Positions 1-11,390 of a stretch of DNA of 11,390 nt are shown in pieces. This DNA comes from Candidatus Iainarchaeum sp. Lineage in GTDB: Archaea > Iainarchaeota > Iainarchaeia > Iainarchaeales > CSSED10-239. The notes below the pieces were generated by a model. That model saw only the letters and a list, made by a program, of their open reading frames with translations, was not told where the DNA came from and searched no databases. The translations under genes and the position numbers were made by a program. The stretch spans positions 1 to 11,390 of the forward strand of contig JAQVRT010000023.1 of the NCBI GenBank assembly GCA_028700905.1. Direction: 5' to 3'. The stretch's first letter is position 1. Each line of letters starts with the position of its first letter.

Positions 1-90
1 ATATTTATAAACATAATGATTAAAGAGAAAAAAGGAAAAAAGTTAAAAAAACAATACTCTTTAAATAAAAATTGGTTTATATAATTATAT

Positions 91-786
91 ATGAGTATAA
101 GTATTAAATATCTTGGACACTCATCATTTCTGTTAACTATCGATAAAAAGAATATTTTAACAGACCCTTTTTTTAAAAATGATTCGTTAGGAAAAATGGA
201 AAGATTAGTCCCTTGTCATCATAAAGTTGAAGATCTTCCAAAGATTGACACTATTTTAATAAGTCACGAACACACAGATTCTTTTGATAAAGATTCAGTA
301 AACTATTTATCTAAAAAATATAATCCAAAGATTATATCTCATTACAGTATCTTGAAAGATATTGAAGGCCTTGAACATAATAAAGTTTCAATTGAAGAAT
401 ATCAAGCAAAAGATATCAATAACATAAATATTCAAGCTCTTCCTGCACATCACCCTGGTGCGTTTTATCCTTTAAGTTTTTTAATTAAAAACAAAAAAGG
501 AAAAACTGTTTATTTTGCAGGAGACACTTATATGACAAAAGACCATGACACTATAAAACCTGACATTGCACTTTTACCAATTGGTGGAAAAAGAACAATG
601 GATCTTGGAACTGCAATTAGGGTTATGAAAAAAATGAGACCTAAATTTGTAATTCCAATGCATTATGATACTTTTGAAGATATTAAAAGAAATCCTCAAG
701 AATTAATCTATAGGTTTGGAAAAAACTATACAGATGTTAATACAGTTATTTTAAATCCAGGTAAAACTTTTAAATTTAAAAATTAA
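91..786 (+). CDS. Metallo-beta-lactamase-fold hydrolase, UPF0173-like paralogue with degenerate motif 2 (HEHTDS instead of HxHxDH)
   Basis: 231-aa ORF with an ATG start. MBL motifs occur in order: IKYLGHSSFLL, LTDPF, ISHEHTDSFD, LPAHHPG, YFAGDT, VIPMHYDTFE. It is a clear paralogue of the 10063..10725 ORF (shared IKY[LI]GHS.FL.TI and [FI]VIPMHYDTFE). There is no SD; a TTTAAATA box sits about 29 nt upstream of the ATG. Confidence 0.8.
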   Translation: MSISIKYLGHSSFLLTIDKKNILTDPFFKNDSLGKMERLVPCHHKVEDLPKIDTILISHEHTDSFDKDSVNYLSKKYNPKIISHYSILKDIEGLEHNKVSIEEYQAKDINNINIQALPAHHPGAFYPLSFLIKNKKGKTVYFAGDTYMTKDHDTIKPDIALLPIGGKRTMDLGTAIRVMKKMRPKFVIPMHYDTFEDIKRNPQELIYRFGKNYTDVNTVILNPGKTFKFKN

Positions 787-1694
787 TAATCTTTAATTTC
801 TAAAGAAAAAAGATCATCTGGAAGAGAAATATTCTTTTTATTTTTTAAATTAGCTTCTAAATCTTTATATCTTGAAGACACATGAACTAAATATAGTTCT
901 TTTGCTTTTATTTTTTTTGAAAAACTAACAACTTCTGAAAAAGAAGAATGTTTCTTAAGTTTAGCTTTTTCTTTTTCTTCATCTAAGAAAGTACACTCAT
1001 GCACTAAAACATCTGGAGATTCAATAAATTTAGGATGTTTTTTTAAAACAGCAGTATCTGTAAAATATAATATTTTTTTACCTTGTTTTTTGAAAGATAA
1101 ATCCATTACTTGACTTGGTTTTATAATTTTACCATCTACCTTAATTGATTTTCCTTCTTGAAGTTTTGAAAATAAAGGTCCTTCTGGTATTTTAAGTTTA
1201 ATTGCTTTTTGTTTATTAAACTTACCAATTTTATCATTTACTTTAAAACAATAACCATAAGATGGAACTGTATGATCAAGCTTTACAGAAGTTATTACTC
1301 CATTATCAATCTTTATTTTTTGATTACTTTTAATTTGTAAAATATTTATTTTAAAAGAAAGATTTATTCCACCAGCTTTTAAAAAATTTTCAAGAAAAGT
1401 TTTATAACCAAAAGGAACATAGATGTTAAGTTCATCTTCTCTTTTTAAAAGAGACATGCTTGATAATAAACCTAAAAGTCCATAATAATGATCTCCATGA
1501 AAATGTGTTATAAAAATACTTTTTATTTTTTGAATACTTTGAGAAGTTTTTAAAATTTGTTGTTGAACATTTTCACTTGCATCAAAAAGATAATTACTTC
1601 CTCTATAATTAATTAATAAAGAAGTTAAGTTTCTAGATTTAGTTGGAGTAGATGCACTTGTTCCTAAAAAATAAATATTAATATTATCAGCCAT
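783..1694 (-). CDS. rnz: Ribonuclease Z (tRNA 3' endonuclease), short form
   Basis: 303 aa with an ATG start. N-terminal IYFLGTSASTPTKSRNLTSLL, motif 2 ITHFHGDHYYGLLGLL, later DHTVPSYGY, LYFTDT, VHECTF and LVHVSSRY match the RNase Z / ELAC1 layout, and the size is typical for it. Confidence 0.88.
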   Translation of the reverse strand: MADNINIYFLGTSASTPTKSRNLTSLLINYRGSNYLFDASENVQQQILKTSQSIQKIKSIFITHFHGDHYYGLLGLLSSMSLLKREDELNIYVPFGYKTFLENFLKAGGINLSFKINILQIKSNQKIKIDNGVITSVKLDHTVPSYGYCFKVNDKIGKFNKQKAIKLKIPEGPLFSKLQEGKSIKVDGKIIKPSQVMDLSFKKQGKKILYFTDTAVLKKHPKFIESPDVLVHECTFLDEEKEKAKLKKHSSFSEVVSFSKKIKAKELYLVHVSSRYKDLEANLKNKKNISLPDDLFSLEIKDY

Positions 1695-1801
1695 ATAAAA
1701 TATATAAAAACAAATGTATTTTAAGGATATTGATACATCTATTATATATCATATAATATTTAGATTCTAATTTTAATAAAAATAAAGAAAATTGAGAAAA
1801 T

Positions 1802-3673
1802 ATGAAAAAAGAAATTAAAGTAAAAGAACTTGTATACAAAGATACAAGTGAAATAATAATTCCAAAAAAAACAATTGATCAAGTAATTGGTCAAGACAAA
1901 TCTATAAATCTTATTAAAAAAGCAGCTCACCAAAAAAGACATATTCTTCTAATAGGAGAACCTGGAACAGGAAAATCTATGCTTGCAGCTGCTCTTGCAG
2001 AGATTTTACCTTCTTATCAATTAAAAGATATTTTATCATATCCAAATAAAGAAGATTCACATAATCCAATAATTAGAGTTGTAAATGCAGGAGAAGGAAA
2101 AAAAATTGTAGAAGATGCAAAACTACAAGCTATGAAAAATAATAGTTCTCAAAGACTATTAAGTTTTATACTTCCAATGGCATGGCTTATTCTTTCAGTT
2201 GCTTTATGGCAATTTAAAGTTATTTCAGACACAGTTTTTGCAGCAATGCTTATTCTTTCTGGATTTATAATGATTGCAACTGCCTTAAGTTTACAAATGA
2301 TGCAAAAAACAAAAGGATTAGTTCCTAAAATATTAATAGACAACTCTAAAAGAAAAGAAGCACCTTTTGTGGATGCTACTGGTGCAAGAGCAGGTGCTTT
2401 ACTTGGAGATGTTTTACATGATCCTCTACAATCAGGTGGTCTTGGAACTCCACCTCACTACAGAATTATTCCTGGGATGATACACAAAGCAAATGAAGGA
2501 GTTTTATTTTTAGACGAAATAGCATCTCTTTCACCAAAATCACAACAAGAACTTTTAACTATATTACAAGAAAAAAAATACAGTATAACTGGACAATCAG
2601 AACTTTCAAGTGGAGCTATGGTAAGAACAACACCTGCACCTTGTAATTTTATATTAGTTGCAGCAGGAAACTACCAAGATCTTGAAAAAGTTCATCCTGC
2701 TATAAGATCAAGAATTAGAGGTTCTGGTTATGAATGTCAAATGAATGTTGATATTCCAGATAATACTGAAAACAGAAATAAAATGGCACAATTTGTTGCA
2801 CAAGAAGTAATTAAAGATAAAAAAATTCCACACTTTACAAAAAATGCTGTAGAAGAAATTATTTTTGAAGCTAGAAAAAAAGCAACTAGAAAAAATCATT
2901 TAAGTTTAAAATTAAGAGAACTTGGTGGACTTGTAAGATCTGCAGGAGATATTGCAAAAGAAAAAGGATTAAGTCTTGTAACTGAAAAAGAAGTTATGGA
3001 AGCTAAAAAACTATCTTCAACTTTAGAACAACAAATGGTTGAAAAAATGATGGATGTTAAAAAAGAATATGACATTTATAAAACAACTGGTAAAAAAGTT
3101 GGAAGAGTAAATGGACTAGCTGTTATGGGAATGACAGAAGCAGGAATAATGCTTCCTATTGAATGTGAAGTTACATTTGCACAATCTCAAAATCAAGGAA
3201 AAGTTATAGCTACAGGAAAATTAGGAGAAATTGCAAAAGAATCTGTTGAAAATGTTTCTGCAATTTTTAAAAAATTAACTGGAAAAGATATCTCAAACTA
3301 TGACATACATGTTCAATTTTTACAAACACATGGAGTTGAAGGAGACTCAGCATCAATTTCTATTGCATCAGCTGTAATTTCTGTTCTTGAAAATATACCA
3401 ATTAAACAAACAATAGCAATGACAGGATCATTATCTATCAGAGGAGAAGTTTTACCTGTTGGTGGAGTTACAGGAAAGATTAATGCTGCAATTAACTCAA
3501 AGATTAAAAAAGTATTAATACCTTTTACAAACAAAGAAGACGTTGTTCTTTCAAAAGAAGCTCTTGACAAAATAGAAATAATTCCTGTTAAAACAATTAA
3601 AGAAGTTATAGAGCATGCTTTTGAAGATGGTGCTAAAAAAGAAAAACTATTAAAGAGATTAAAATCTCTTTAA
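1802..3673 (+). CDS. lonB: Archaeal membrane-bound Lon protease (LonB)
   Basis: 623 aa. Walker A GEPGTGKS and Walker B VLFLDEI are separated by two hydrophobic helices, which is the LonB hallmark. The C-terminal protease domain has [15 protein letters not shown] (Ser) and [11 protein letters not shown] (Lys) 43 residues apart, giving a Ser-Lys dyad. Confidence 0.93.
2153..2296 (+). other. Two-helix transmembrane insertion inside the LonB AAA+ module
   Basis: Residues ~118-165, [49 protein letters not shown], lie between Walker A and Walker B. Confidence 0.75.
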
Positions 3674-3678
3674 AATTC

Positions 3679-3686
3679 TTTTTTTT
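3679..3686 (+). terminator. T8 run after lonB, overlapping the PCNA stop codon
   Basis: TTTTTTTT starts 5 nt after the lonB TAA. Only 11 nt separate the convergent lonB and PCNA ORFs. Confidence 0.4.
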
Positions 3687-4401
3687 AAATTAACATACTT
3701 GACAAATAGAAATTAATCTTAACCTTATTCTCTAAATAATACTCTAGATAAAGAGGAGAATCTTCTGATAACTTAATTAAAACATCAGTCTCATTATCTA
3801 TTGATTTTGTAATATTTTTTAAATATGATAAAGAAAATTTAACCATGATATTTTTCTTAGACTTAATTTTAACTTTAGAAATTATAGTCTCGATTCTTCC
3901 TTTATCTCCTTGAGATTCAATAATAAATTTATTATTTTTTATTTTAAAAGTAACAGTTGTACCAATTAGACTTATATCTTTAAAAATTTCTTTTAAAAGA
4001 TAAGCTTTTAGAGAAATTTCTGCATCATACTCAATTTCTGGAATTGAGATTTCATTTTCAGAAATATCTATATAACTAATATTAAACTTTCTTTCAATTT
4101 GTCCTAAAAGATTAATCTCTAAAGAATTATCTTTTAATTCAAGCTTTAGTTTATCAGAATCAAAAGATCTTGAAATAATATTATATAACTCATGAATATT
4201 TATTCCAACTAAACTAGGCTCAACTAGATAATTTTCAAAATAAGATTTATCAAAATAAAAGTCAAGTAAAAGAATCTGTGTTTTATCAACAGCTTTGATA
4301 TATATTCCATCTTGTTTAAATCTTACATTAGTTTCTTGTATTAAGCTTGAGATTGACTCTAAAGCATCTTTAAAAAGTTTAGTATTTTTTGCAGTTATCA
4401 T
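3685..4401 (-). CDS. pcn: DNA polymerase sliding clamp (PCNA)
   Basis: 238 aa. The N-terminus, FKDALESISSLIQETNVRFKQDGIYIKAVDKTQILLLDF...YF, and the overall size and periodicity are typical of archaeal PCNA. It is divergent from the clamp-loader large subunit. Confidence 0.82.
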   Translation of the reverse strand: MITAKNTKLFKDALESISSLIQETNVRFKQDGIYIKAVDKTQILLLDFYFDKSYFENYLVEPSLVGINIHELYNIISRSFDSDKLKLELKDNSLEINLLGQIERKFNISYIDISENEISIPEIEYDAEISLKAYLLKEIFKDISLIGTTVTFKIKNNKFIIESQGDKGRIETIISKVKIKSKKNIMVKFSLSYLKNITKSIDNETDVLIKLSEDSPLYLEYYLENKVKINFYLSSMLI

Positions 4402-4514
4402 ATCTAATCACACAATATAATATATATTCCCTAAGATTTATAAACTATAATCATTTAAGTTAATAATTAATAAGAGTAATAACGTTTTTAATTACTTCCT
4501 AAATATATTATATT

Positions 4515-5756
4515 ATGACAAATTTTCTTGAAAAATACAGACCATCAAATCTTAGTGAAATGATTGGCCAGAAAAAACAGATTGAAACTTTAAAAGAAAG
4601 TTTAAGTAAAAATCCAAGTACACCAATCTTTATTTATGGAGAAAGTGGTATTGGAAAAACCTTAGCAGTAAAACTTCTTGCAAAAGAACTTAACTTGTCT
4701 ATTTATCATACAGATGCTTCTGATATTAGAGGAAAAGAAGCAATTACAAGTCTTGCTCAAGTAGCATATTCAGCATCAAACATATTTGGTCAAAAAAGAC
4801 TGATTCTTTTAGATGAAATTGACGCTCTTGAAGATAAAAGAGGAAGAGAAGATGCTGGAGGGTTTGCAGAAATTACAAAGATAATTGATAAAACAAAACA
4901 ACCAATAATTTTTATTGCAAACGATCCTTATGAAAATAAAAAACTAAGGCCTATCTTTAATAAATGTGTACAGATAAGGTTTGATCTTCCAAATAAACTT
5001 TCAATACTTAAGTTTGCAAAAGAAATTTGTGATAAAGAAGAAAAAGATTATGATTTAATGTCTCTTAAAACACTTGTTGAAAACACAAAAAATGATATTA
5101 GAGCTTTACTTTTAGATCTTGAGACTTTATGTAATTTTGATAAAATAACATTAGAAGACATAGAAGCCTTAGGAGATAGAAAAAGAGATGAAGATGTTTT
5201 TAAAGTTCTTGGAAAAATATTTTATCCAAGAGGTTTTCTTGAAACTAAAAATGCAATAAATGATTTAAGTATAGATTGGGAACTTTTATTTGCATGGCTT
5301 GAAGAAAATATACCTAGAAAATATAAAAATCCAATAAATCTTGAGAGAGGTATGGAAGCTTTAAGTAGAGCAGATGTTTTTAAAGGAAGAATTAAAGCTA
5401 CAAATTGGATTCTTTTAAAATATATTTTAGATTATTTAACAGTTGGAGTTGCTTATGCAAAAACAGAAAAAGAAGCAGGAGGCTTTTCACCTTTTGTTTT
5501 TCCAACACTTTTAAAGAAATTAAGTTCTAATAAAAAAGAAAAAATTATTTTTGATAATATTGTATTAAAAATGCAAGAGAAAATACATGCATCAAAAAGA
5601 ATAATTAAAAGAGACTACATACCTTTTCTTTTAATTATTGCACAAACAAATAAATTTACAAAAGATATTGTTAATTATTTTGGATTTGAGCATGAAGAAA
5701 TCAAACAACTTGGAGCAAAAATATCTTTAAAAGAATATGAAAAAATAATTGAATAA
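4515..5756 (+). CDS. rfcL: Replication factor C large subunit (clamp loader)
   Basis: 413 aa. It has LEKYRPSNLSEMIGQ (RFC box II), Walker A YGESGIGKT, Walker B LILLDEIDAL, IIFIANDPY (sensor 1 region) and NDIRALLLDLE (SRC-like / sensor region). It is shorter than most archaeal RFC-L proteins. Confidence 0.85.
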   Translation: MTNFLEKYRPSNLSEMIGQKKQIETLKESLSKNPSTPIFIYGESGIGKTLAVKLLAKELNLSIYHTDASDIRGKEAITSLAQVAYSASNIFGQKRLILLDEIDALEDKRGREDAGGFAEITKIIDKTKQPIIFIANDPYENKKLRPIFNKCVQIRFDLPNKLSILKFAKEICDKEEKDYDLMSLKTLVENTKNDIRALLLDLETLCNFDKITLEDIEALGDRKRDEDVFKVLGKIFYPRGFLETKNAINDLSIDWELLFAWLEENIPRKYKNPINLERGMEALSRADVFKGRIKATNWILLKYILDYLTVGVAYAKTEKEAGGFSPFVFPTLLKKLSSNKKEKIIFDNIVLKMQEKIHASKRIIKRDYIPFLLIIAQTNKFTKDIVNYFGFEHEEIKQLGAKISLKEYEKIIE

Positions 5757-5781
5757 TATTAAAAATAAAAAATGATTTAAT

Positions 5782-7572
5782 ATGGCAACAGAATATACAA
5801 GAATAGCAGTAATTGATAAAAATAAATGTCAACCAAAAGCATGTAACTATCTATGCCACAGAGTTTGTCCTCCTGTTAAAATGGGAGAAGATGCAATCGA
5901 AGTTACAAATAGAGAAAACTGGACTCCACCAGTAATTAATGAATCTCTATGTACTGGATGTGGAATCTGCCCTCATAAATGCCCTTTTAAAGCAATTACG
6001 ATTATAAACACAGGAATTAAGTTTGGAGATCCAATACACCAATATGGACAAAATAGCTTTAGAGTATATTCACTTCCATCCTCTGAAAAAGGTTTTATTA
6101 CAGGACTTATTGGAATTAATGGGTCTGGAAAAACAACAAGTATAAACATCCTTTCAGGAAATTTAGTTCCTAACTTAGGAGCCTATGATGAAAAAGAAGA
6201 CATAGACAAAGTAATTGAGTATTATAGAGGAAAAAATATCCAAAAGAATTTTATAGAAATTAAAGAAAAAAAATTATCTTTTGCATATAAAATACAGAAA
6301 GTTGAAGAAATTCCAAAAGTCTTTAAAAAAAGCATTAAAGAATTACTTGAAAATATTTCAAAAGATAAAGAATACTATGAAAAAATTATAAAAGAACTTG
6401 AAATTGAAAAACTTCTTTTAAAAACACCAACAGAGGTATCAGGTGGAGAATTACAAAGAATAGCAATTGCTGCATGTCTTTTAAAAGATGCTCAACTTTA
6501 TTTTTTTGATGAGTACACTACATTTTTAGATATTAAACAAAGATTTAAAATTGCAAAGATTTTAAGAGAAAAAATAAATGAAAATAATTCAATTATGTTA
6601 ATTGAACATGATCTTGCAATTTTAGATTATATTAGTGATTTTGTACAAATAATGTTTGGTAGGAAAAATGCATATGGACAATCTTCTAATAAAAAAACAA
6701 CAAAAAAAGGAATAAATGAATTTTTAGAAGGTTTCTTAAAAGAAGAAAACATAAGAATTAGAGATTATAAAATAGAATTTAGTTCTGCAAAATATGCAAC
6801 TGAAAAAAGAATAGAAACCACTCTTGCAAAATATCCTTCTTTTAAAAAAACATTAGGAGAATTTAACCTAGAAGTTGAAGAAGGAGAAATTAAGAAAGGA
6901 GAAATAATTGGTGTTTTAGGACAAAATGCTATTGGAAAAACAACCTTTATAAAAATTCTTGCAGGAGAAATAAAAGCAGATGATAAAGAGCTAGATATTA
7001 AACTTAAAGTATCATATAAACCTCAATATATAGATCTTAATGAAGAAATTACTGTTCAAGAATTATTTTTAAAAAAAGAAATAAATCAAGATATTTTTAA
7101 TTCAGAGATTAGAAGACAACTTGATATTGATAGTATAATTGATCAAGAAATAAATCAACTTTCTGGAGGAGAACTTCAAAAAGTTGCAATTGCATATACT
7201 CTTTCAAAAAACGCAGATATCTATCTTATTGATGAACCATCAGCATTTTTAGATGTTGAGCAAAGATTAATTGTTTCAAATGTTATTAAAAGCGTAATTT
7301 TAAAGACAGAAAAAAGTGCTTTAGTTGTAGATCACGATCTTTTATTTGTAGATTATATTTCAGATAGAGTTCTTTTATTCCAAGGAGAAGCCTCTGTTAA
7401 AGGTTTTGCAAACAAAATAGATAAAATAGAAGCTTCTTTTAATAAATTTTTAAAAGAACAAAACATGACTTTTAGACAAGATCCTGATACTAAAAGACCA
7501 AGAGCAAATAAACCAGACTCACAGAAAGATAAAGAACAAAGAAAAGAAAATAGTTATTATTATACTATTTAA
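5782..7572 (+). CDS. abce1: ABCE1 / RNase L inhibitor homologue (ribosome recycling ATPase)
   Basis: 596 aa. The N-terminal FeS domain has CQPKACNYLCHRVCP and CTGCGICPHKCP. There are two ABC domains: GINGSGKTT / VSGGELQR / FFDEYTTFLD / IEHDL, and GQNAIGKTT / LSGGELQK / LIDEPSAFLD / VDHDL. The C-terminal RQDPDTKRPRANKPDSQKDKEQ..YY tail is also present. Confidence 0.95.
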   Translation: MATEYTRIAVIDKNKCQPKACNYLCHRVCPPVKMGEDAIEVTNRENWTPPVINESLCTGCGICPHKCPFKAITIINTGIKFGDPIHQYGQNSFRVYSLPSSEKGFITGLIGINGSGKTTSINILSGNLVPNLGAYDEKEDIDKVIEYYRGKNIQKNFIEIKEKKLSFAYKIQKVEEIPKVFKKSIKELLENISKDKEYYEKIIKELEIEKLLLKTPTEVSGGELQRIAIAACLLKDAQLYFFDEYTTFLDIKQRFKIAKILREKINENNSIMLIEHDLAILDYISDFVQIMFGRKNAYGQSSNKKTTKKGINEFLEGFLKEENIRIRDYKIEFSSAKYATEKRIETTLAKYPSFKKTLGEFNLEVEEGEIKKGEIIGVLGQNAIGKTTFIKILAGEIKADDKELDIKLKVSYKPQYIDLNEEITVQELFLKKEINQDIFNSEIRRQLDIDSIIDQEINQLSGGELQKVAIAYTLSKNADIYLIDEPSAFLDVEQRLIVSNVIKSVILKTEKSALVVDHDLLFVDYISDRVLLFQGEASVKGFANKIDKIEASFNKFLKEQNMTFRQDPDTKRPRANKPDSQKDKEQRKENSYYYTI

Positions 7573-8057
7573 GATCTTCTTTGGAAAATAATTTCTGCAG
7601 AAATATAATTATCAACAATTGAAACATTACAATCAGAGAAATCACCAGAAACATTTATTTCTTTATCAAAATAAATTTCTTTTGAAATTTGAGAAGTAAT
7701 ATTTGAAGATTGGTTATTACATAATAAATCTAATTTTCCAGAAAATCTATCTCCTGAAAGAGCAGAATTATCAATTGTAATTTCACAATCAAGACTATTT
7801 TTATTTGTTTCATTTAACATAGATGAAAGATAACTATTAACTCTTGAATCATAATTACTTTTTGTTGCAATTGAACAACTATTAAAAGTTTCATCCAGCA
7901 AAGAATCTACAACAATATTATCTGCTGATAAGGCTAAAAGAGAAACATGATTATAAGAATTTGTTATAACTTCTGTGTTATCAGAAATAATTATTGAAGG
8001 AGTTAAAAAAACAATAACAATTAATAAAATAATTCCACTAAACAAACCTTTTTCCAT
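7569..8057 (-). CDS. Class III signal peptide (type IV pilin-like) protein, P4
   Basis: The track ORF starts at GTG 8069. I prefer ATG 8057 (MEKGLFSGIILLIVIVFLTPSII, 162 aa) because GAGGGG (plus-strand cccctc, 8062-8067) lies 4-6 nt upstream as an SD. The leader ends in KG and is followed by a hydrophobic helix. The mature part has 4 Cys and 5 N-x-S/T sequons. I recognise no family. Confidence 0.6.
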   Translation of the reverse strand: MEKGLFSGIILLIVIVFLTPSIIISDNTEVITNSYNHVSLLALSADNIVVDSLLDETFNSCSIATKSNYDSRVNSYLSSMLNETNKNSLDCEITIDNSALSGDRFSGKLDLLCNNQSSNITSQISKEIYFDKEINVSGDFSDCNVSIVDNYISAEIIFQRRS

Positions 8058-8340
8058 CAAACCCCTCACAATAAACTTTAGTTTCTAAATCATTATAACC
8101 ACTATCACTTGAAGTAAAATCATAATAGAAATATTCAGTACACCAGTAATACTCAGCTGGACTTGTAACTTCTCCTTCTCCTGAATTAAACTCATTATAA
8201 CTAAGTGAATTTAAAATTATTTGCTTATCTGTATTAACTGACCTATAAACAACAAAAGTTGTAAGTGTTAAAAATAAAATAAATATCATTACATAGTGAA
8301 GAGTTGTAATTGTTAAAATATATCCTTTATTTTGTTTCAT
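8038..8340 (-). CDS. Small class III signal peptide-like protein, P3 (aromatic-rich mature domain)
   Basis: 100 aa. The ATG abuts the P2 stop (TAAATG), and AAGGTGTGGAG SD lies 4 nt upstream. The N-terminus is MKQNKG-YILTITTLHYVMIFILFLTLTTFVV. The mature part has 2 Cys and a YYWCTEYFYYDF segment. Confidence 0.55.
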   Translation of the reverse strand: MKQNKGYILTITTLHYVMIFILFLTLTTFVVYRSVNTDKQIILNSLSYNEFNSGEGEVTSPAEYYWCTEYFYYDFTSSDSGYNDLETKVYCEGFDGKRFV

Positions 8341-8844
8341 TTATCTCCACACCTTTAAATTTAGTTCTTGTTTAGTATTTAAAATATTATCATTACCAGA
8401 TAAACTATCAATATACCTTTTTTTATTAATTGCAAAGTTTGGTGTAATTGAAACATTAAAATCTATAGAATAATAATTATCAATTGATGGATCTAAAACA
8501 TCAGTACATTCATTTGCAGTAAAAGCATAACCTGTAAGAGAACATTTATAGTTTGTAGGAATCCCTAGATTGTTTTTTGAAATATTTGAATTTTCAGTAA
8601 GGCATGCAGGAATATGATATCTATTATGAGAATCAAATGCATAACAATTAATATATGGATTATTAACTATATTTTTAAAAGCCATTTTTCCAACATTGTT
8701 TAATTGAGAATTAATATTATCTGTTGTTGTTGAATAAACTTTTGATTCAACAATATTTACTAAAAGGAAAGAAACAAGTATGATTAGAACAACTGAAAAA
8801 AGAATATCTAAAACCATAATTTGTCCTTTTCTATTTTTAATCAT
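8341..8844 (-). CDS. Class III signal peptide (type IV pilin-like) protein, P2
   Basis: The track ORF begins at TTG 8850. ATG 8844 gives MIKNRKG-QIMVLDILFSVVLIILVSFLLV (167 aa), leaving a 2-nt gap after the P1 stop. The mature part has 4 Cys and 2 sequons (NIS, NVS). Confidence 0.65.
   Translation of the reverse strand: MIKNRKGQIMVLDILFSVVLIILVSFLLVNIVESKVYSTTTDNINSQLNNVGKMAFKNIVNNPYINCYAFDSHNRYHIPACLTENSNISKNNLGIPTNYKCSLTGYAFTANECTDVLDPSIDNYYSIDFNVSITPNFAINKKRYIDSLSGNDNILNTKQELNLKVWR
8345..8354 (-). promoter_or_regulatory. Shine-Dalgarno site of P3, embedded in the end of P2
   Basis: Minus-strand AGGTGTGGAG, with GGAG 4 nt before ATG 8340. Confidence 0.5.
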
Positions 8845-8846
8845 AA

Positions 8847-9320
8847 TCAATCACAAGCAATTTCTCCAGCAACATTATAACAAGTAACTATTTCTCCACA
8901 ATACTTTTCAAAATCACTAAAAGAAAATTTAGTGTTGTTTAAAGACATGTTTTGATCATAATAGATTACAGAATCATCATACTCTACAATCATATTTAAA
9001 AAGCCAGGGTTAATAATAAACTTACATTCTACATTCTTAGAAGGAATTGTAATGTTTGGAATTTTAAAAGTATTTTGAAAACTTACATTAAAATTATTAT
9101 CAACAACATCAGTTACAAATATTTCTTGAGACTTTAAAAAACTATAAAGAGAATCTGAAATTTGAGATTGTTGTTCTTTTATTTTATAAAGCTCAATTGT
9201 TTCAACAGTATTGTTTGAAAGATCATTAAATACAGTTATAAATATTATTAGAAAGATAATAATGATTACAACTTCAATTGAAACTTGGCCCTTTTTATTT
9301 CTATTCATAAATATTAACAT
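8847..9320 (-). CDS. Class III signal peptide (type IV pilin-like) protein, P1, with canonical KGQxSxE prepilin motif
   Basis: 157 aa from ATG 9320, or 153 aa if the second ATG at 9308 is used (MNRNKKGQVSIEVVIIIIFLIIFITVF). KKGQVSIE (9273-9296) matches the archaeal Class_IIIsignal (PF04021-type) consensus, with Gln +1 and Glu +5 after the Gly. The mature part has 4 Cys and 5 sequons. Confidence 0.7.
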   Translation of the reverse strand: MLIFMNRNKKGQVSIEVVIIIIFLIIFITVFNDLSNNTVETIELYKIKEQQSQISDSLYSFLKSQEIFVTDVVDNNFNVSFQNTFKIPNITIPSKNVECKFIINPGFLNMIVEYDDSVIYYDQNMSLNNTKFSFSDFEKYCGEIVTCYNVAGEIACD

Positions 9321-9379
9321 TTAATAAGTTATATATTATAAAATAGAATAAAACATTTATAAACATTAGCAATTTTAAT

Positions 9380-9395
9380 AAAAAAAAGAAAAAAA
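9380..9395 (-). terminator. Oligo-T terminator after ef1b
   Basis: The minus strand reads TTTTTTTCTTTTTTTT immediately after the TAA stop (9396-9398). It separates the ef1b operon from the pilin-like operon. Confidence 0.5.
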
Positions 9396-9662
9396 TTAAA
9401 GTAAAGTAGATACTTCAATTTCTATGTCTCTTACACCTTCAATAGCCTTAATAGCATCTTCAAGTTTATCTAAAAGACCATCTATTTTATCAGGGAAGAC
9501 AACTCCTAACTTAATTACTTTTAATCCAAAAGCAATTGGTTCAACTTCTATTTTTGCAACTTTGAAAGGATCACCAAAACCTTTTTCTAAAGATTCTTTT
9601 ACCTTATCAATATCTTCTATTTCCTCAGGGTATACTTTGTATACTGAAAGAATGTCACCCAT
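9396..9662 (-). CDS. ef1b: Translation elongation factor aEF-1 beta
   Basis: 88 aa, MGDILSVYKVYPE...VEPIAFGLKVIKLGVVFPDK...IEGVRDIEIEVSTLL, matches the size and sequence pattern of archaeal EF-1beta. An AGGTGA SD lies 7 nt upstream of the ATG. Confidence 0.9.
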   Translation of the reverse strand: MGDILSVYKVYPEEIEDIDKVKESLEKGFGDPFKVAKIEVEPIAFGLKVIKLGVVFPDKIDGLLDKLEDAIKAIEGVRDIEIEVSTLL

Positions 9663-9669
9663 AAATAAT

Positions 9670-9675
9670 TCACCT
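9670..9675 (-). promoter_or_regulatory. Shine-Dalgarno site of ef1b
   Basis: Minus-strand AGGTGA, 7 nt before ATG 9662. Confidence 0.6.
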
Positions 9676-9708
9676 ACATTATGTTTTTAAAAATAATAAA
9701 TTTAATAC

Positions 9709-9864
9709 CTAAGGACCTATAAATGAACAACTTGGACACTTATATTTCTTTGATATAGACTTACATCTGTTACATCTAATAATTTCTACTTTCCCGCAGT
9801 TTGGGCATTTAAATTTTGTGAAATTATCTGTAACTTCTATATTACAACTACTGCATCTATCCAT
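9709..9864 (-). CDS. Zn-ribbon protein of the COG2888 / DUF1610 type (conserved archaeal partner of aEF-1beta)
   Basis: Hand-translated and absent from the ORF track: MDRCSSCNIEVTDNFTKFKCPNCGKVEIIRCNRCKSISKKYKCPSCSFIGP (51 aa, TAG stop). It has four CxxC pairs and a KCPxCxFxGP C-terminus. A GAGGTG SD lies 8 nt upstream, and the gene sits immediately upstream of ef1b on the same strand. Confidence 0.8.
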   Translation of the reverse strand: MDRCSSCNIEVTDNFTKFKCPNCGKVEIIRCNRCKSISKKYKCPSCSFIGP

Positions 9865-9872
9865 TAGTAATG

Positions 9873-9878
9873 CACCTC
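9873..9878 (-). promoter_or_regulatory. Shine-Dalgarno site of the Zn-ribbon gene
   Basis: Minus-strand GAGGTG, 8 nt before ATG 9864. Confidence 0.6.
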
Positions 9879-9918
9879 TAATTTTTTTAAAAAGAATAAT
9901 TATATATTAACTTAAAAC

Positions 9919-9931
9919 TATATATATTTAA
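9919..9931 (+). promoter_or_regulatory. Putative TATA box for the tRNA-Arg gene
   Basis: CTATATATATTTA is centred about 30 nt upstream of tRNA position 1 and preceded by an A-rich BRE-like stretch. This is the archaeal promoter geometry. Confidence 0.45.
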
Positions 9932-9955
9932 TAAACAAATCATTTTTAAAAGGGT

Positions 9956-10028
9956 GGGGTTGTAGCATAGTGGATAGTGCAGTTGGCTTCGGACCAACAG
10001 GTCGTGGGTTCAAATCCCACCAACCCCT
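9956..10028 (+). tRNA. tRNA-Arg (anticodon TCG)
   Basis: Manual cloverleaf fold.
- Acceptor stem: GGGGTTG (9956-9962) pairs with CAACCCC (10021-10027).
- D arm: GCAT/GTGC with loop AGTGGATA.
- Anticodon stem: GTTGG/CCAAC with loop CTTCGGA, anticodon TCG at 9989-9991, U33 and G37.
- Variable loop: 5 nt, AGGTC.
- T arm: GTGGG-TTCAAAT-CCCAC.
- 3' end: discriminator T at 10028. No CCA is encoded and no intron is present. Confidence 0.9.
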
Positions 10029-10057
10029 TTTTTCTATTTTTTTAAAAAAATTAAAAA
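10028..10057. terminator. Bidirectional oligo-T terminator between the convergent tRNA-Arg and MBL hydrolase genes
   Basis: The plus strand reads T6-CTA-T7-A7-TT-A5. This gives T-runs on the plus strand right after the tRNA and T-runs on the minus strand right after the TAG stop at 10063-10065. Confidence 0.55.
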
Positions 10058-10062
10058 GAGAA

Positions 10063-10725
10063 CTACATTTCTTTTTCTTCTAAAATATCAAAAACAATAA
10101 GCTCTACAGGAATATTTTGTAATTCCATCTCTTCTCTTAAATTTTCAGGAGTATATTTTAAAACTTCAAAGGTATCATAATGCATTGGAATTACAATCTT
10201 TGGTTTTAAAAGATTTAAAGCATAACAAGCTTCTTTTATACCCATATTAAACCTACCATCAATAGGAAGCATCACAATTTCTGGAGCATATAAATCTTTA
10301 ATAATTTTCATATCTAAAAAAACATTTGTATCTCCTGCAAAATAAATACTTCTTTGATCATATCTAATAATAAAACCTACAGGGACACCTTTATTTGAAG
10401 AATGCTCAGCTTTAACAAAAGTAAAAGAAATACCTTTATAATCAATTGTTCCACCTAAATTTCCACCAATTGTTGGGACATGAAATTTATTTAATTCTTG
10501 AGCAAGATCAAAAATTGTAATAATCTCTGCACCAGAATGTTTAGAAATCTCAATTGCATCTCCTAAATGATCATGATGATCATGGGTTAATAAAATAACA
10601 TCTGGCTTAACATCTAAAACACCCATTTTAGATAAAGGATTGTTTGTTATAAAAGGATCTAAAAGAATTTTAATATTATTAATTGTGATTAAAAAACAAG
10701 AATGTCCAATGTATTTAATATTCAT
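10063..10725 (-). CDS. UPF0173-family metallo-beta-lactamase-fold hydrolase (canonical metal ligands)
   Basis: 220 aa. Motifs are MNIKYIGHSCFLI, LLDPF, LLTHDHHDHLGDA, KAEHSS, YFAGDT, VIPMHYDTFE. A GTGAGGAG SD lies 8 nt upstream, and the ATG overlaps the upstream ORF's stop (ATGA). Confidence 0.88.
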   Translation of the reverse strand: MNIKYIGHSCFLITINNIKILLDPFITNNPLSKMGVLDVKPDVILLTHDHHDHLGDAIEISKHSGAEIITIFDLAQELNKFHVPTIGGNLGGTIDYKGISFTFVKAEHSSNKGVPVGFIIRYDQRSIYFAGDTNVFLDMKIIKDLYAPEIVMLPIDGRFNMGIKEACYALNLLKPKIVIPMHYDTFEVLKYTPENLREEMELQNIPVELIVFDILEEKEM

Positions 10726-11390
10726 GATTTAAGCTCCTCACTTTTTTTATTAATTTTTTCAATAATTGTAAATGGTCCAAAAAAATAAACTTTACCAAAA
10801 CTAAATCTTACTAAAATATCATTAATATAGATTTTAAACCTAATAGATAGACTTTGTTCAAAATCTTTTAAAATAAAATCCTTAAAAGAATCAAAATCTT
10901 TAATATTTAACTTAAAAGTAAAATCATTTTTTTTAATAAAAATATTATTACTCTCAAAAAAAGTTATAGTCTGAGGATATTGGTTTGAGCAATCAATAGT
11001 TAATTCTTCAAAAGAATAAAGTTCTAAAACATATTTAAAAAGATCAAAAGTTTTAGAATTTAGGTTAAATATAAGATAATCTTCAAAATTTTCATTTTTT
11101 AAAATATTTATGTGATTTGAAAGTATAGAAGAAATATAAGTATAATGAGAAACACTTGAATCAATTTCTTTTTTTAAAATTTCAAGATCGCTTATATAAA
11201 AATTAGAACTAGTCTTTCCTGTCTTTAAAAAACTAGGATCTTGTTTACTTCTTTCAAGAAATATCTGTAAATTTTTTACAATTTCATCAACATCTTCTAA
11301 AGAACTTTTTTTTCTTGATTTTTCTAAAAGATCATTTATGTTAATTAAAATTTTATTTTTAAGTTTAGACTCAATTGTCTGTCTTCCTTT
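10722..11390 (-). CDS. Hypothetical protein, C-terminal 222 codons (5' end outside window)
   Basis: I hand-translated the minus-strand frame and it is open from the window edge to TGA at 10722-10724. It reads ...LEDVDEIVKNLQIFLERSKQDPSFLKTGK...ELTIDCSNQYPQTITFFESNN...RFSFGKVYFFGPFTIIEKINKKSEELKS*. The other two minus frames hit stops near the 3' end of this region. The stop overlaps the ATG of the MBL gene. I recognise no family. Confidence 0.6.
   Translation of the reverse strand, partial: KGRQTIESKLKNKILININDLLEKSRKKSSLEDVDEIVKNLQIFLERSKQDPSFLKTGKTSSNFYISDLEILKKEIDSSVSHYTYISSILSNHINILKNENFEDYLIFNLNSKTFDLFKYVLELYSFEELTIDCSNQYPQTITFFESNNIFIKKNDFTFKLNIKDFDSFKDFILKDFEQSLSIRFKIYINDILVRFSFGKVYFFGPFTIIEKINKKSEELKS
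10734..10741 (-). promoter_or_regulatory. Shine-Dalgarno site of the UPF0173 hydrolase, embedded in the upstream ORF
   Basis: Minus-strand GTGAGGAG, 8 nt before ATG 10725. Confidence 0.6.

Follow-up and report, generated by a model that had tools for sequence, protein, structure and literature searches.

Introduction

Among archaeal surface filaments, type IV filament (TFF) system 1, which is clade 1 of Makarova et al. 2016, combines a single ATPase gene with two platform genes, a large peptidase of its own and tiny head-less major pilins, together with many additional class III proteins taken as minor pilins and with stand-alone pilin loci. Its occurrence has been described for methanogens, Thermococcales and DPANN (PMC4858521; 10.64898/2026.04.22.720090). 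Encoding of archaeal pilin sets apart from the ATPase/TadC module is established (PMC4858521). In Methanococcus maripaludis, Epd pili consist of the major pilin EpdE and the minor pilins EpdA-D, and the system also comprises a single ATPase, two platform proteins and the peptidase EppA. Epd pilins are processed at RAQI, KGQV, KGQL and KGQI sites, EppA substrates being marked by Gln at +1 and Glu at +5, of which the +1 Gln is required by the M. maripaludis enzyme (PMC4371748). Here we have investigated an 11,390-nucleotide stretch of DNA from Candidatus Iainarchaeum sp. (GenBank assembly GCA_028700905.1, contig JAQVRT010000023.1, positions 1 to 11,390 of the forward strand; hereafter the window), in which four consecutive genes, designated P1 to P4, encode small proteins with class III signal leaders between the genes for ABCE1 and aEF-1beta. 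Our results indicate that P1-P4 are probably accessory (minor) pilins which form a conserved module and belong to an archaeal type IV pilus of the Epd-like kind, TFF system 1.

The ABCE1 protein of the window is 99% identical to that of Candidatus Forterrea multitransposorum (CP045477.1, complete genome), a Diapherotrites/Iainarchaeota (DPANN) archaeon from Crystal Geyser for which a symbiotic lifestyle is predicted (PMC5905446).

Gene organization and class III leaders

An initial annotation, prepared from the window sequence alone, described four consecutive, tightly packed open reading frames (ORFs) on the minus strand at 7569-9320, separated by gaps of 2 nucleotides (nt), 0 nt and -20 nt, the last being a 20-nt overlap. 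The ORFs and their spacing are present in the ORF list as described:

P1: 8847..9308, minus strand, 153 amino acids (aa) from the ATG at 9308 (MNRNKKG); an upstream ATG at 9320 gives 157 aa
P2: 8341..8844, minus strand, 167 aa from the ATG at 8844; the TTG-started ORF is 8341-8850
P3: 8038..8340, minus strand, 100 aa
P4: 7569..8057, minus strand, 162 aa with the ATG at 8057 as start; starting at the GTG at 8069 would extend it to 166 aa
EF-1beta/P1 intergenic region: 9309..9395, minus strand, T-rich tracts after the EF-1beta stop and a TATA-like TTTATAAA at ~9363-9356, read from the sequence

Shine-Dalgarno-like GGAG/GAGG motifs directly precede P3 and P4 (GGAG at P3). The 9309..9395 region probably provides the four-gene operon with a separate promoter, a reading tempered by the fact that TATA-like strings are common at 25% G+C.

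The leaders are exactly as quoted in the annotation, a short basic stretch ending in K/R-G/A being followed by ~20 hydrophobic residues in all four proteins, with predicted cleavage sites (slash) at MNRNKKG/QVSIE in P1, MIKNRKG/QIMVLD in P2, MKQNKG/YILTIT in P3 and MEKG/LFSGII in P4. All four window proteins therefore display class III signal architecture, and in all four families the charged leader of 3-8 residues stands directly before the hydrophobic stretch. P1 carries a canonical Epd/EppA-type site (+1 Gln, +3 Ser, +5 Glu), while P2 has Gln at +1 and Asp at +6. Conservation of these positions, numbered from the predicted cleavage site, was determined in orthologs from 20 related loci, 7 distant loci and 16 metagenome loci:

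P1 leader (n=43): -2 K/R in 41; -1 G/A in 43; +1 Q in 43; +3 S in 40; +5 D/E in 43
P2 leader (n=40): -2 K/R in 37; -1 G/A in 40; +1 Q in 40; +6 D/E in 40
P3 leader (n=43): -2 K/R in 42; -1 G/A in 43; +1 F, Y or aliphatic (F/Y/I/V); +3 F in 38; +6 D in 24 (T/S in 18)
P4 leader (n=42): -2 K in 37; -1 G in 41; +1 hydrophobic (L/F/I/V); +2 F/Y in 36; no conserved acidic residue

The proposal that the four proteins have the architecture of prepilin-peptidase substrates is thus backed by a near-exceptionless K/R at -2 and G/A at -1 in 40-43 orthologs per family. At the -1 position of P1, Gly is found in the window and Ala in CP045477, and these are the sole residues observed at that position among the orthologs. 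The cleavage motifs are strictly maintained within the Forterrea clade. The mature domains are only 21-55% identical among orthologs; this divergence, combined with a near-invariant leader, indicates selection on the processing site. We also applied a crude class III rule of our own (K/R at -2, G/A/S at -1, then a strongly hydrophobic 22-mer) to the 604 ORFs of the 20 related loci. Only ~12 ORFs outside the four families were flagged, and the probability that four consecutive leaders occur by chance is therefore negligible.

Position +6 of P3 is Asp in distant lineages (24/43) and Thr/Ser throughout the Forterrea clade (18/43); this entire clade has therefore lost the N-terminal acidic residue, but in no subunit other than P3.

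Conservation of the four-gene array

The initial annotation regarded the operon as an orphan, possibly inserted between two core genes. Neither description holds, as the array is conserved across the phylum in related metagenome-assembled genomes (MAGs), distant loci and metagenome loci. All four families are found, in unchanged order, between ABCE1 and EF-1beta in ~18 related MAG loci (tblastn and ORF inspection of loci L001-L020), whose ABCE1 proteins are 62-85% identical to that of the window. For P1, no more than 25 full-length relatives were retrieved by a word-indexed search of 5.8 billion proteins, and for P4 no more than 37, none of them annotated; JGI lists one ortholog as "UPF0333 family". 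With the P1 profile, HMMER detected ~50 further remote relatives of 129-160 aa in a full scan of 1.84 billion representatives; these align over nearly the full profile, and in each of the 24 that were read, all small proteins, a [KR][GA]Q..[DE] leader is present (24/24). One remote P1 homolog of 288 aa (P0111) has a Cys-rich, DUF4215-like tail.

Remote P1 relatives on a sufficiently long contig (L032, L034, L036, L037 and L039) each open an equivalent four-gene array, and the family hidden Markov models (HMMs) confirm the P1-P4 order in these five loci and in L040 and L044, with expectation values (E) down to 6e-28. The distant arrays are followed by a convergent ABCE1, either directly or with one AsnB-like gene between. 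Adjacency to ABCE1 is accordingly observed in L001-L020, in the distant loci L032, L034, L036, L037 and L039, and in at least 10 metagenome loci. ABCE1 of the distant relatives is 42-49% identical to that of the window (45-49% in the loci of the remote P1 relatives), Methanobrevibacter ABCE1 being comparably far at 45%. Linkage to ABCE1 is thus ancestral and retained even at this degree of divergence. An insertion or mobile-element origin of the operon was rejected in view of this conserved synteny together with a flat G+C content of ~0.22-0.25 across the operon, near that of the rest of the window (~25% overall; range 0.21-0.32).

The tight convergence of P4 and ABCE1 has outlasted the divergence of ABCE1 itself, an unusually durable synteny of a pilin module with a ribosome-recycling gene. 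At the opposite end of the operon, a 408-aa ORF with a basic N-terminus, possibly transposase-like, is inserted between P1 and EF-1beta in one relative (L003 13768-14994, minus strand), which shows that the junction of P1 with EF-1beta can vary.

Linkage to type IV pilus machinery in distant relatives

More distantly related genomes carry the array beside a complete type IV pilus locus. In L039, annotated at NCBI as "Ca. Diapherotrites archaeon", the genes upstream of the array and on the same strand encode, in order, T2SSE, T2SSF, T2SSF, a 55-aa Class_IIIsignal protein, a 56-aa protein, a Peptidase_A24+Arc_PepC protein, KGQ proteins of 151 aa and 127 aa, DUF2101, an OB-fold protein, TctA, JAB and phosphoglycerate mutase, after which the array begins. 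This layout recurs in L044, L040 and L032. One T2SSE ATPase and two T2SSF/TadC-like platform genes per locus are observed in L039, L044 and more than 25 metagenome loci, all from related genomes with the array. The T2SSE ATPase of L039 (1-1647) is interrupted by an intein (Intein_splicing and LAGLIDADG_3), its product being 1180 aa.

Peptidase_A24+Arc_PepC proteins of 341-376 aa lie upstream of the array in L032, L039, L040 and L044, with conserved YTDLR and WAGGDVK motifs that contain the two Asp residues, putatively catalytic, expected of GxGD-type A24 peptidases. The peptidase has 460 homologs and, among the 120 matches listed, those named by organism are mostly from Diapherotrites. In the same four loci the peptidase is adjoined by proteins of 55-61 aa that carry K[GA]Q leaders, and these tiny pilins match PF04021 in L039, L040 and L044. 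The P1 profile also detects the tiny pilins and other KGQ proteins around the peptidase.

The association was extended by one metagenome scan anchored on the peptidase, which yielded 80 loci annotated with local HMMs, 23 of which were informative in that at least 8.5 kilobases (kb) were available downstream of the peptidase. The array is present on the same strand, 2.8-6.9 kb downstream of the peptidase, in 16 of these 23 loci, and the 16 loci span 31-57% G+C. With the array beside Epd-like machinery in distant relatives, an accessory-pilin module of system 1 is the most economical reading of P1-P4. The likeness to minor-pilin sets drawn in the initial annotation is apt, the distant-relative array adjoining a full type IV pilus locus with tiny major-pilin candidates of its own. 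The further suggestion of a filament system of undescribed composition is not supported, as the machinery beside the array belongs to a known type, the Epd-like TFF system 1, already reported in DPANN (10.64898/2026.04.22.720090; PMC4858521).

The same machinery could also serve a second filament built by P1-P4 themselves, with P1 as the major and P2-P4 as minor subunits, in place of an accessory function in the tiny-pilin pilus. P1 is first in the operon, bears the most canonical leader of the four, with the full KGQxS[IL]E signature, and has its own upstream intergenic region, and in the Forterrea clade the module persists although it is separated from the locus of the tiny pilins. In addition, surplus globular system 1 pilins have been proposed to form a second, unidentified filament (10.64898/2026.04.22.720090), and several Haloferax volcanii pilins are each able to form pili (PMC4858521, PMC4371748). 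However, the operon position and the tight or overlapping junctions suggest that the products are made in similar amounts, unlike a major subunit, which normally far outnumbers the others, and the known system 1 major pilins are small stand-alone genes. A separate P1 filament is therefore considered unlikely.

ComGC-GG and GspG-K are sets of several different pilin-like genes in a row, and a row of four or five differing pilins recalls them. P1-P4 might accordingly be processed but never polymerized into a long pilus, forming a short pseudopilus or a surface-anchored complex comparable to the Sulfolobus bindosome or a Com-like DNA uptake apparatus. Archaeal prepilin peptidases also process non-pilus proteins, e.g. 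sugar-binding proteins (PMC4371748), and a dependence on nucleotide metabolism is predicted for Forterrea (PMC5905446), and a role in DNA uptake would be attractive given such a predicted nucleotide-scavenging lifestyle. The heads, however, carry no solute-binding, nuclease or DNA-binding domain according to Pfam and NCBIfam, no ComEC-like or Ced-like gene was noticed among the Pfam families of neighbouring genes in the distant loci, and the locus to which the array is linked in these relatives encodes tiny pilins of the classic filament-forming type. We give such a non-pilus complex little weight.

Mature domains and structural predictions

The mature domains were said in the initial annotation to resemble nothing recognizable and to contain even numbers of cysteines, and both observations are upheld. 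Cysteines number 4, 4, 2 and 4 in P1, P2, P3 and P4, respectively, with counts and positions conserved across orthologs. P1 has four invariant cysteines (C95, C137, C143 and C152), P2 has conserved C67, C101 and C113 together with a C-terminal ..L.VW[KR] motif, and P3 has invariant C67 and C91 together with WC and YCE motifs. Among 19 P4 orthologs three cysteines are invariant and the fourth is present in 18/19, while in 32 P4 sequences K3, G4, L5, F6, P20, C61, C91, C113 and C143 are invariant. These conserved even numbers are consistent with extracellular disulfides. The five N-x-S/T sequons reported in each of P1 and P4 are also present, but the argument for glycosylation built on them is not supported: in shuffled sequences P=0.05 for P1, 0.29 for P4 and 0.9 for P2, values within the expectation of an Asn-rich composition, and sequon enrichment was dropped as evidence of glycosylation.

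The ratio of nonsynonymous to synonymous differences (pN/pS) between the window and CP045477 is 0.16-0.54 for P1-P4, compared with 0.00-0.11 in six and 0.16-0.41 in three of nine neighbours. As expected for surface proteins, the pattern corresponds to purifying selection with faster change, and is indicative only because counts are small. Alignment of family profiles with hhalign relates P1 and P2 (91% probability over the N-terminal half); the remaining pairs align over the leader alone, and paralogy among all four families was rejected.

A search with PF04021, proposed in the initial annotation, gave a weak match to P1 and none to P2, P3 or P4. For P1 of the window, E=0.036 and 14.5 bits were obtained against a cut-off of 23.7 bits, with the first 17 residues aligned to the start of the model. 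Among P1 orthologs, 6/17 match at E<0.1, the best at ~16 bits and all under the 23.7-bit gathering cut-off, and some distant P1 homologs also give weak matches. NCBIfam searches were empty for all four proteins.

AlphaFold2 models built from family alignments predict a helix at 11-65 followed by seven strands for P1 (mean predicted local distance difference test score, pLDDT, 86; predicted template modelling score, pTM, 0.73), and helices at 4-60 and 66-85 with a five-stranded sheet for P4 (pLDDT 82, pTM 0.69). As modelled, P1 and P4 are pilin-like lollipops, with an N-terminal helix of ~55 residues and a beta-sheet head. The structural comparison suggested in the initial annotation is favourable with respect to the architecture of the P1 and P4 monomer models, but not with respect to Foldseek, which gave no significant match to a pilin or to any other structure.

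Several P4 orthologs possess an extra C-terminal region of ~75-215 aa that has no Pfam match (L013 11783-12919, minus strand, 378 aa; P0029, P0054 and P0057), the extension being ~200 aa in L013, P0029 and P0054. These extensions suggest that P4 is a modular, possibly adhesin-bearing pilin.

Search for pilus machinery near the Forterrea-clade array and evidence against a pilin module

As stated in the initial annotation, the window itself is devoid of an assembly ATPase, platform protein or peptidase, none being found among its Pfam results. In the 20 close loci a T2SSE-type Walker A motif (G..GSGK[ST]) is present only in ABCE1 and one small protein, and no tiny head-less pilin was found in the window or its ±10 kb. 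Pfam matches in the Forterrea flanks are limited to housekeeping genes, one reverse transcriptase and one protein with an FGE-sulfatase domain. Two candidates considered as Forterrea-clade peptidases, P0170 (the most AT-rich match) and P0179 (an "ainarchaeum" match), are both from other lineages. The Forterrea genome paper, in which pili are unmentioned, reports assembly difficulties with a "secretion-related ATPase" that contains repeats (PMC5905446). The machinery is presumed to be present in the window's own genome, as indirectly hinted at by this ATPase, by a protein with a Pilin_N-like leader and by the strictly kept cleavage motifs.

The Pilin_N-like leader belongs to a 453-aa protein with an FGE-sulfatase domain (E=4e-9), encoded at L002 2815-4176 on the minus strand of the Forterrea genome, 51 bp past the window's left end. 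Its leader, MFFKYIFQRFRFQKG/ISPLIATILLIVVSVAI (FQKG/ISPLIATILL), resembles PF07790 Pilin_N at a sub-threshold E=0.028. The protein is a candidate class III substrate of a second kind, the PilA type, encoded in the Forterrea genome.

Several observations weigh against assignment of P1-P4 as accessory pilins. No machinery genes were detected in the ±10 kb around the array, either in the Forterrea genome or in any of the 20 close loci, and the +1 Gln that M. maripaludis EppA requires is missing from P3 and P4. In the distant loci the array is set apart from the pilus locus by four genes of housekeeping type; linkage is therefore suggestive, not operonic, and could be inherited gene order. No Pfam or NCBIfam model, including PF07790 Pilin_N, reaches threshold for P1-P4 or their orthologs, the sub-threshold PF04021 match being confined to P1, and searches of PDB sequences with the P1-P4 family HMM profiles were empty. 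Foldseek searches of the PDB with the P1 and P4 models gave no significant match (E<=0.001), the best E being 0.11 for P1 and 0.015 for P4 with TM-scores <0.35, and pilins are missing from the top 50 matches of both models. The Foldseek result argues against a known pilin fold family and not against pilin function, as pilin heads are notoriously diverse.

The same absence of family and structural matches, together with the intervening housekeeping genes, would suit uncleaved type II signal-anchor membrane proteins, e.g. envelope- or S-layer-associated, whose proximity to pilus genes is inherited synteny; a lollipop-like model, moreover, arises from any N-terminal transmembrane helix. Signal anchors, however, are not expected to keep K/R at -2, G/A at -1, Q at +1 and D/E at +5/+6 near-invariant where ABCE1 has diverged to 45%, nor does this reading account for charged leaders that abut the hydrophobic stretch in every family or for a P1 profile that picks up the tiny pilins and the KGQ proteins flanking the peptidase. 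We consider uncleaved anchors highly improbable, and retain an accessory-pilin module as the probable identity of P1-P4.

Source and neighbouring genes of the window

Look-ups of window proteins by exact sequence gave no match. The window is a strain variant of CP045477 and not the deposited sequence, protein identity being 94-98% for P1-P4, 98-100% for most neighbours and 95% for EF-1beta; P1 at window 8847-9320 corresponds to L002 13066-13539 in CP045477. The flanks of the operon are core translation genes, as initially annotated, ABCE1 and aEF-1beta being verified by Pfam, the latter through EF1_GNE. Stop codons of ABCE1 and P4 overlap in a TTAA at 7569-7572, leaving zero intergenic space for terminators. 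Further neighbours identified by Pfam are an HVO_2753-type zinc finger protein, LonB, PCNA, the RFC large subunit, RNase Z and two metallo-beta-lactamase (MBL)-fold proteins. Features of the window outside the operon include:

ABCE1 (RLI): 5782..7572, plus strand, Fer4_RLI and two ABC_tran domains (Pfam); outside the module, a conserved neighbour convergent with P4
tRNA-Arg: 9956-10028, neighbour in the window
MBL-fold (Lactamase_B_3) gene pair: 91-786, plus strand, and 10063-10725, minus strand; paralogues with ~35% mutual identity

The two MBL-fold genes flank the entire conserved block and both are kept in related loci. In CP045477, a reverse transcriptase (RVT_1, E=2e-23) is encoded at L002 329-1360 on the minus strand, ~3 kb left of the window, and is presumably one of the mobile elements behind the genome's name.

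Comparison with known systems

From the gene structure, the conservation of cleavage motifs and cysteines, the lollipop shape of the P1 and P4 models and the physical linkage to machinery in distant relatives, each of which is established directly, we infer that the leaders are cleaved and that P1-P4 are incorporated into a filament with a tip or priming role. In the mechanism we propose, each precursor would insert in the membrane via its N-terminal hydrophobic helix, the A24/Arc_PepC class III signal peptidase would cut the short basic leader after K/R-G/A, and the T2SSE ATPase with the two TadC-like platform proteins would extract the mature subunits into the filament. The shaft would probably consist of the 55-61 aa head-less pilins, while P1-P4, with disulfide-stabilized globular heads, would most likely assemble into a heteromeric complex responsible for priming and capping the pilus and for its binding specificity. 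In the Forterrea clade the module, encoded apart from the machinery, would be served in trans.

The array resembles the Epd system in several respects. The distant-relative loci beside it contain one T2SSE, two T2SSF, a large dedicated A24/Arc_PepC peptidase, head-less K[GA]Q pilins of 55-61 aa, within the ~55-75 aa expected of arCOG06620-like tiny major pilins, and several extra globular class III proteins, and extra pilins at separate loci are a known feature of the Epd system. P1 and P2 carry KGQ, with the acidic residue at +5 in P1 as in EppA substrates, but at +6 in P2. Unlike Epd pilins, P3 and P4 have no Gln at +1, and the +1 preference of the Iainarchaeal peptidase may differ from that of M. 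maripaludis EppA. A further difference is that the P1-P4 module is a separate unit beside ABCE1, fully detached from the machinery (within ±10 kb) in the Forterrea clade.

With respect to bacterial systems, four different pilin-like genes in one compact operon are reminiscent of FimU-PilVWX, GspH-I-J-K and ComGD-GG. The N-terminal acidic residue is conserved in P1 and P2, partial in P3 and absent in P4. The bacterial tip subunits GspK and PilX likewise lack Glu5. By analogy with these subunits, the graded acidic residue (P1 +5, P2 +6, P3 +6 in most lineages, none in P4), together with the P4 extension, suggests an ordered complex with P4 outermost. P4 would be the best candidate for the outermost subunit because it has no conserved acidic residue and occasionally bears an extra domain, the latter also being found in modular adhesive pilins. 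Unlike bacterial minor pilins, P1-P4 have an archaeal cleavage motif (K/R at -2, Gln at +1) and not the bacterial one, in which cleavage follows Gly and precedes F/M-xxxE. Pfam, PDB sequence and Foldseek (P1 and P4 models) searches revealed no homology or shared fold with GspH/I/J/K or FimU/PilV/W/X, and the relation to bacterial priming complexes is one of functional analogy only. Tentatively, and with less confidence than the assignment to a pilin module, P1-P4 could represent the first recognizable archaeal counterpart of the bacterial minor-pilin tip/priming complex, an ordered P4-P3-P2-P1 cap in which P4 would be outermost and P1 joined to the head-less-pilin shaft, setting the attachment target in host-dependent Iainarchaeota.

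In relation to PF04021 Class_IIIsignal (UPF0333/DUF361), the start of P1 aligns below the cut-off and P2-P4 do not match, while the tiny pilins do. DPANN signal-peptide proteins without detectable pilin similarity have been inferred to be pilins through their association with type IV pili (Makarova, Wolf and Koonin 2019; PMC6393860), and P1-P4 fit this "dark-matter" pilin situation. That study gives example islands but not these four families; to these the present analysis adds the conserved order of the four genes, motif signatures for each family and a linkage to ABCE1 that has persisted.

Should the assignment be correct, a function is provided for four "hypothetical" families that have no Pfam model and are found throughout Iainarchaeota/Diapherotrites, and the per-family signatures and alignments could seed new models. 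The compact globular pilin set would comprise the likeliest specificity determinants of the sole obvious surface filament of these reduced, probably host-dependent archaea, and would be a defined candidate for an archaeal pilus tip/priming complex, an idea so far well established only in bacteria. Both the machinery type and in-trans pilin sets are already described, and the set is not an orphan novelty, because it is conserved in the same order across the phylum. Most likely, therefore, the P1-P4 module is an uncharacterized part of a known kind of surface filament and not a new kind of machine.

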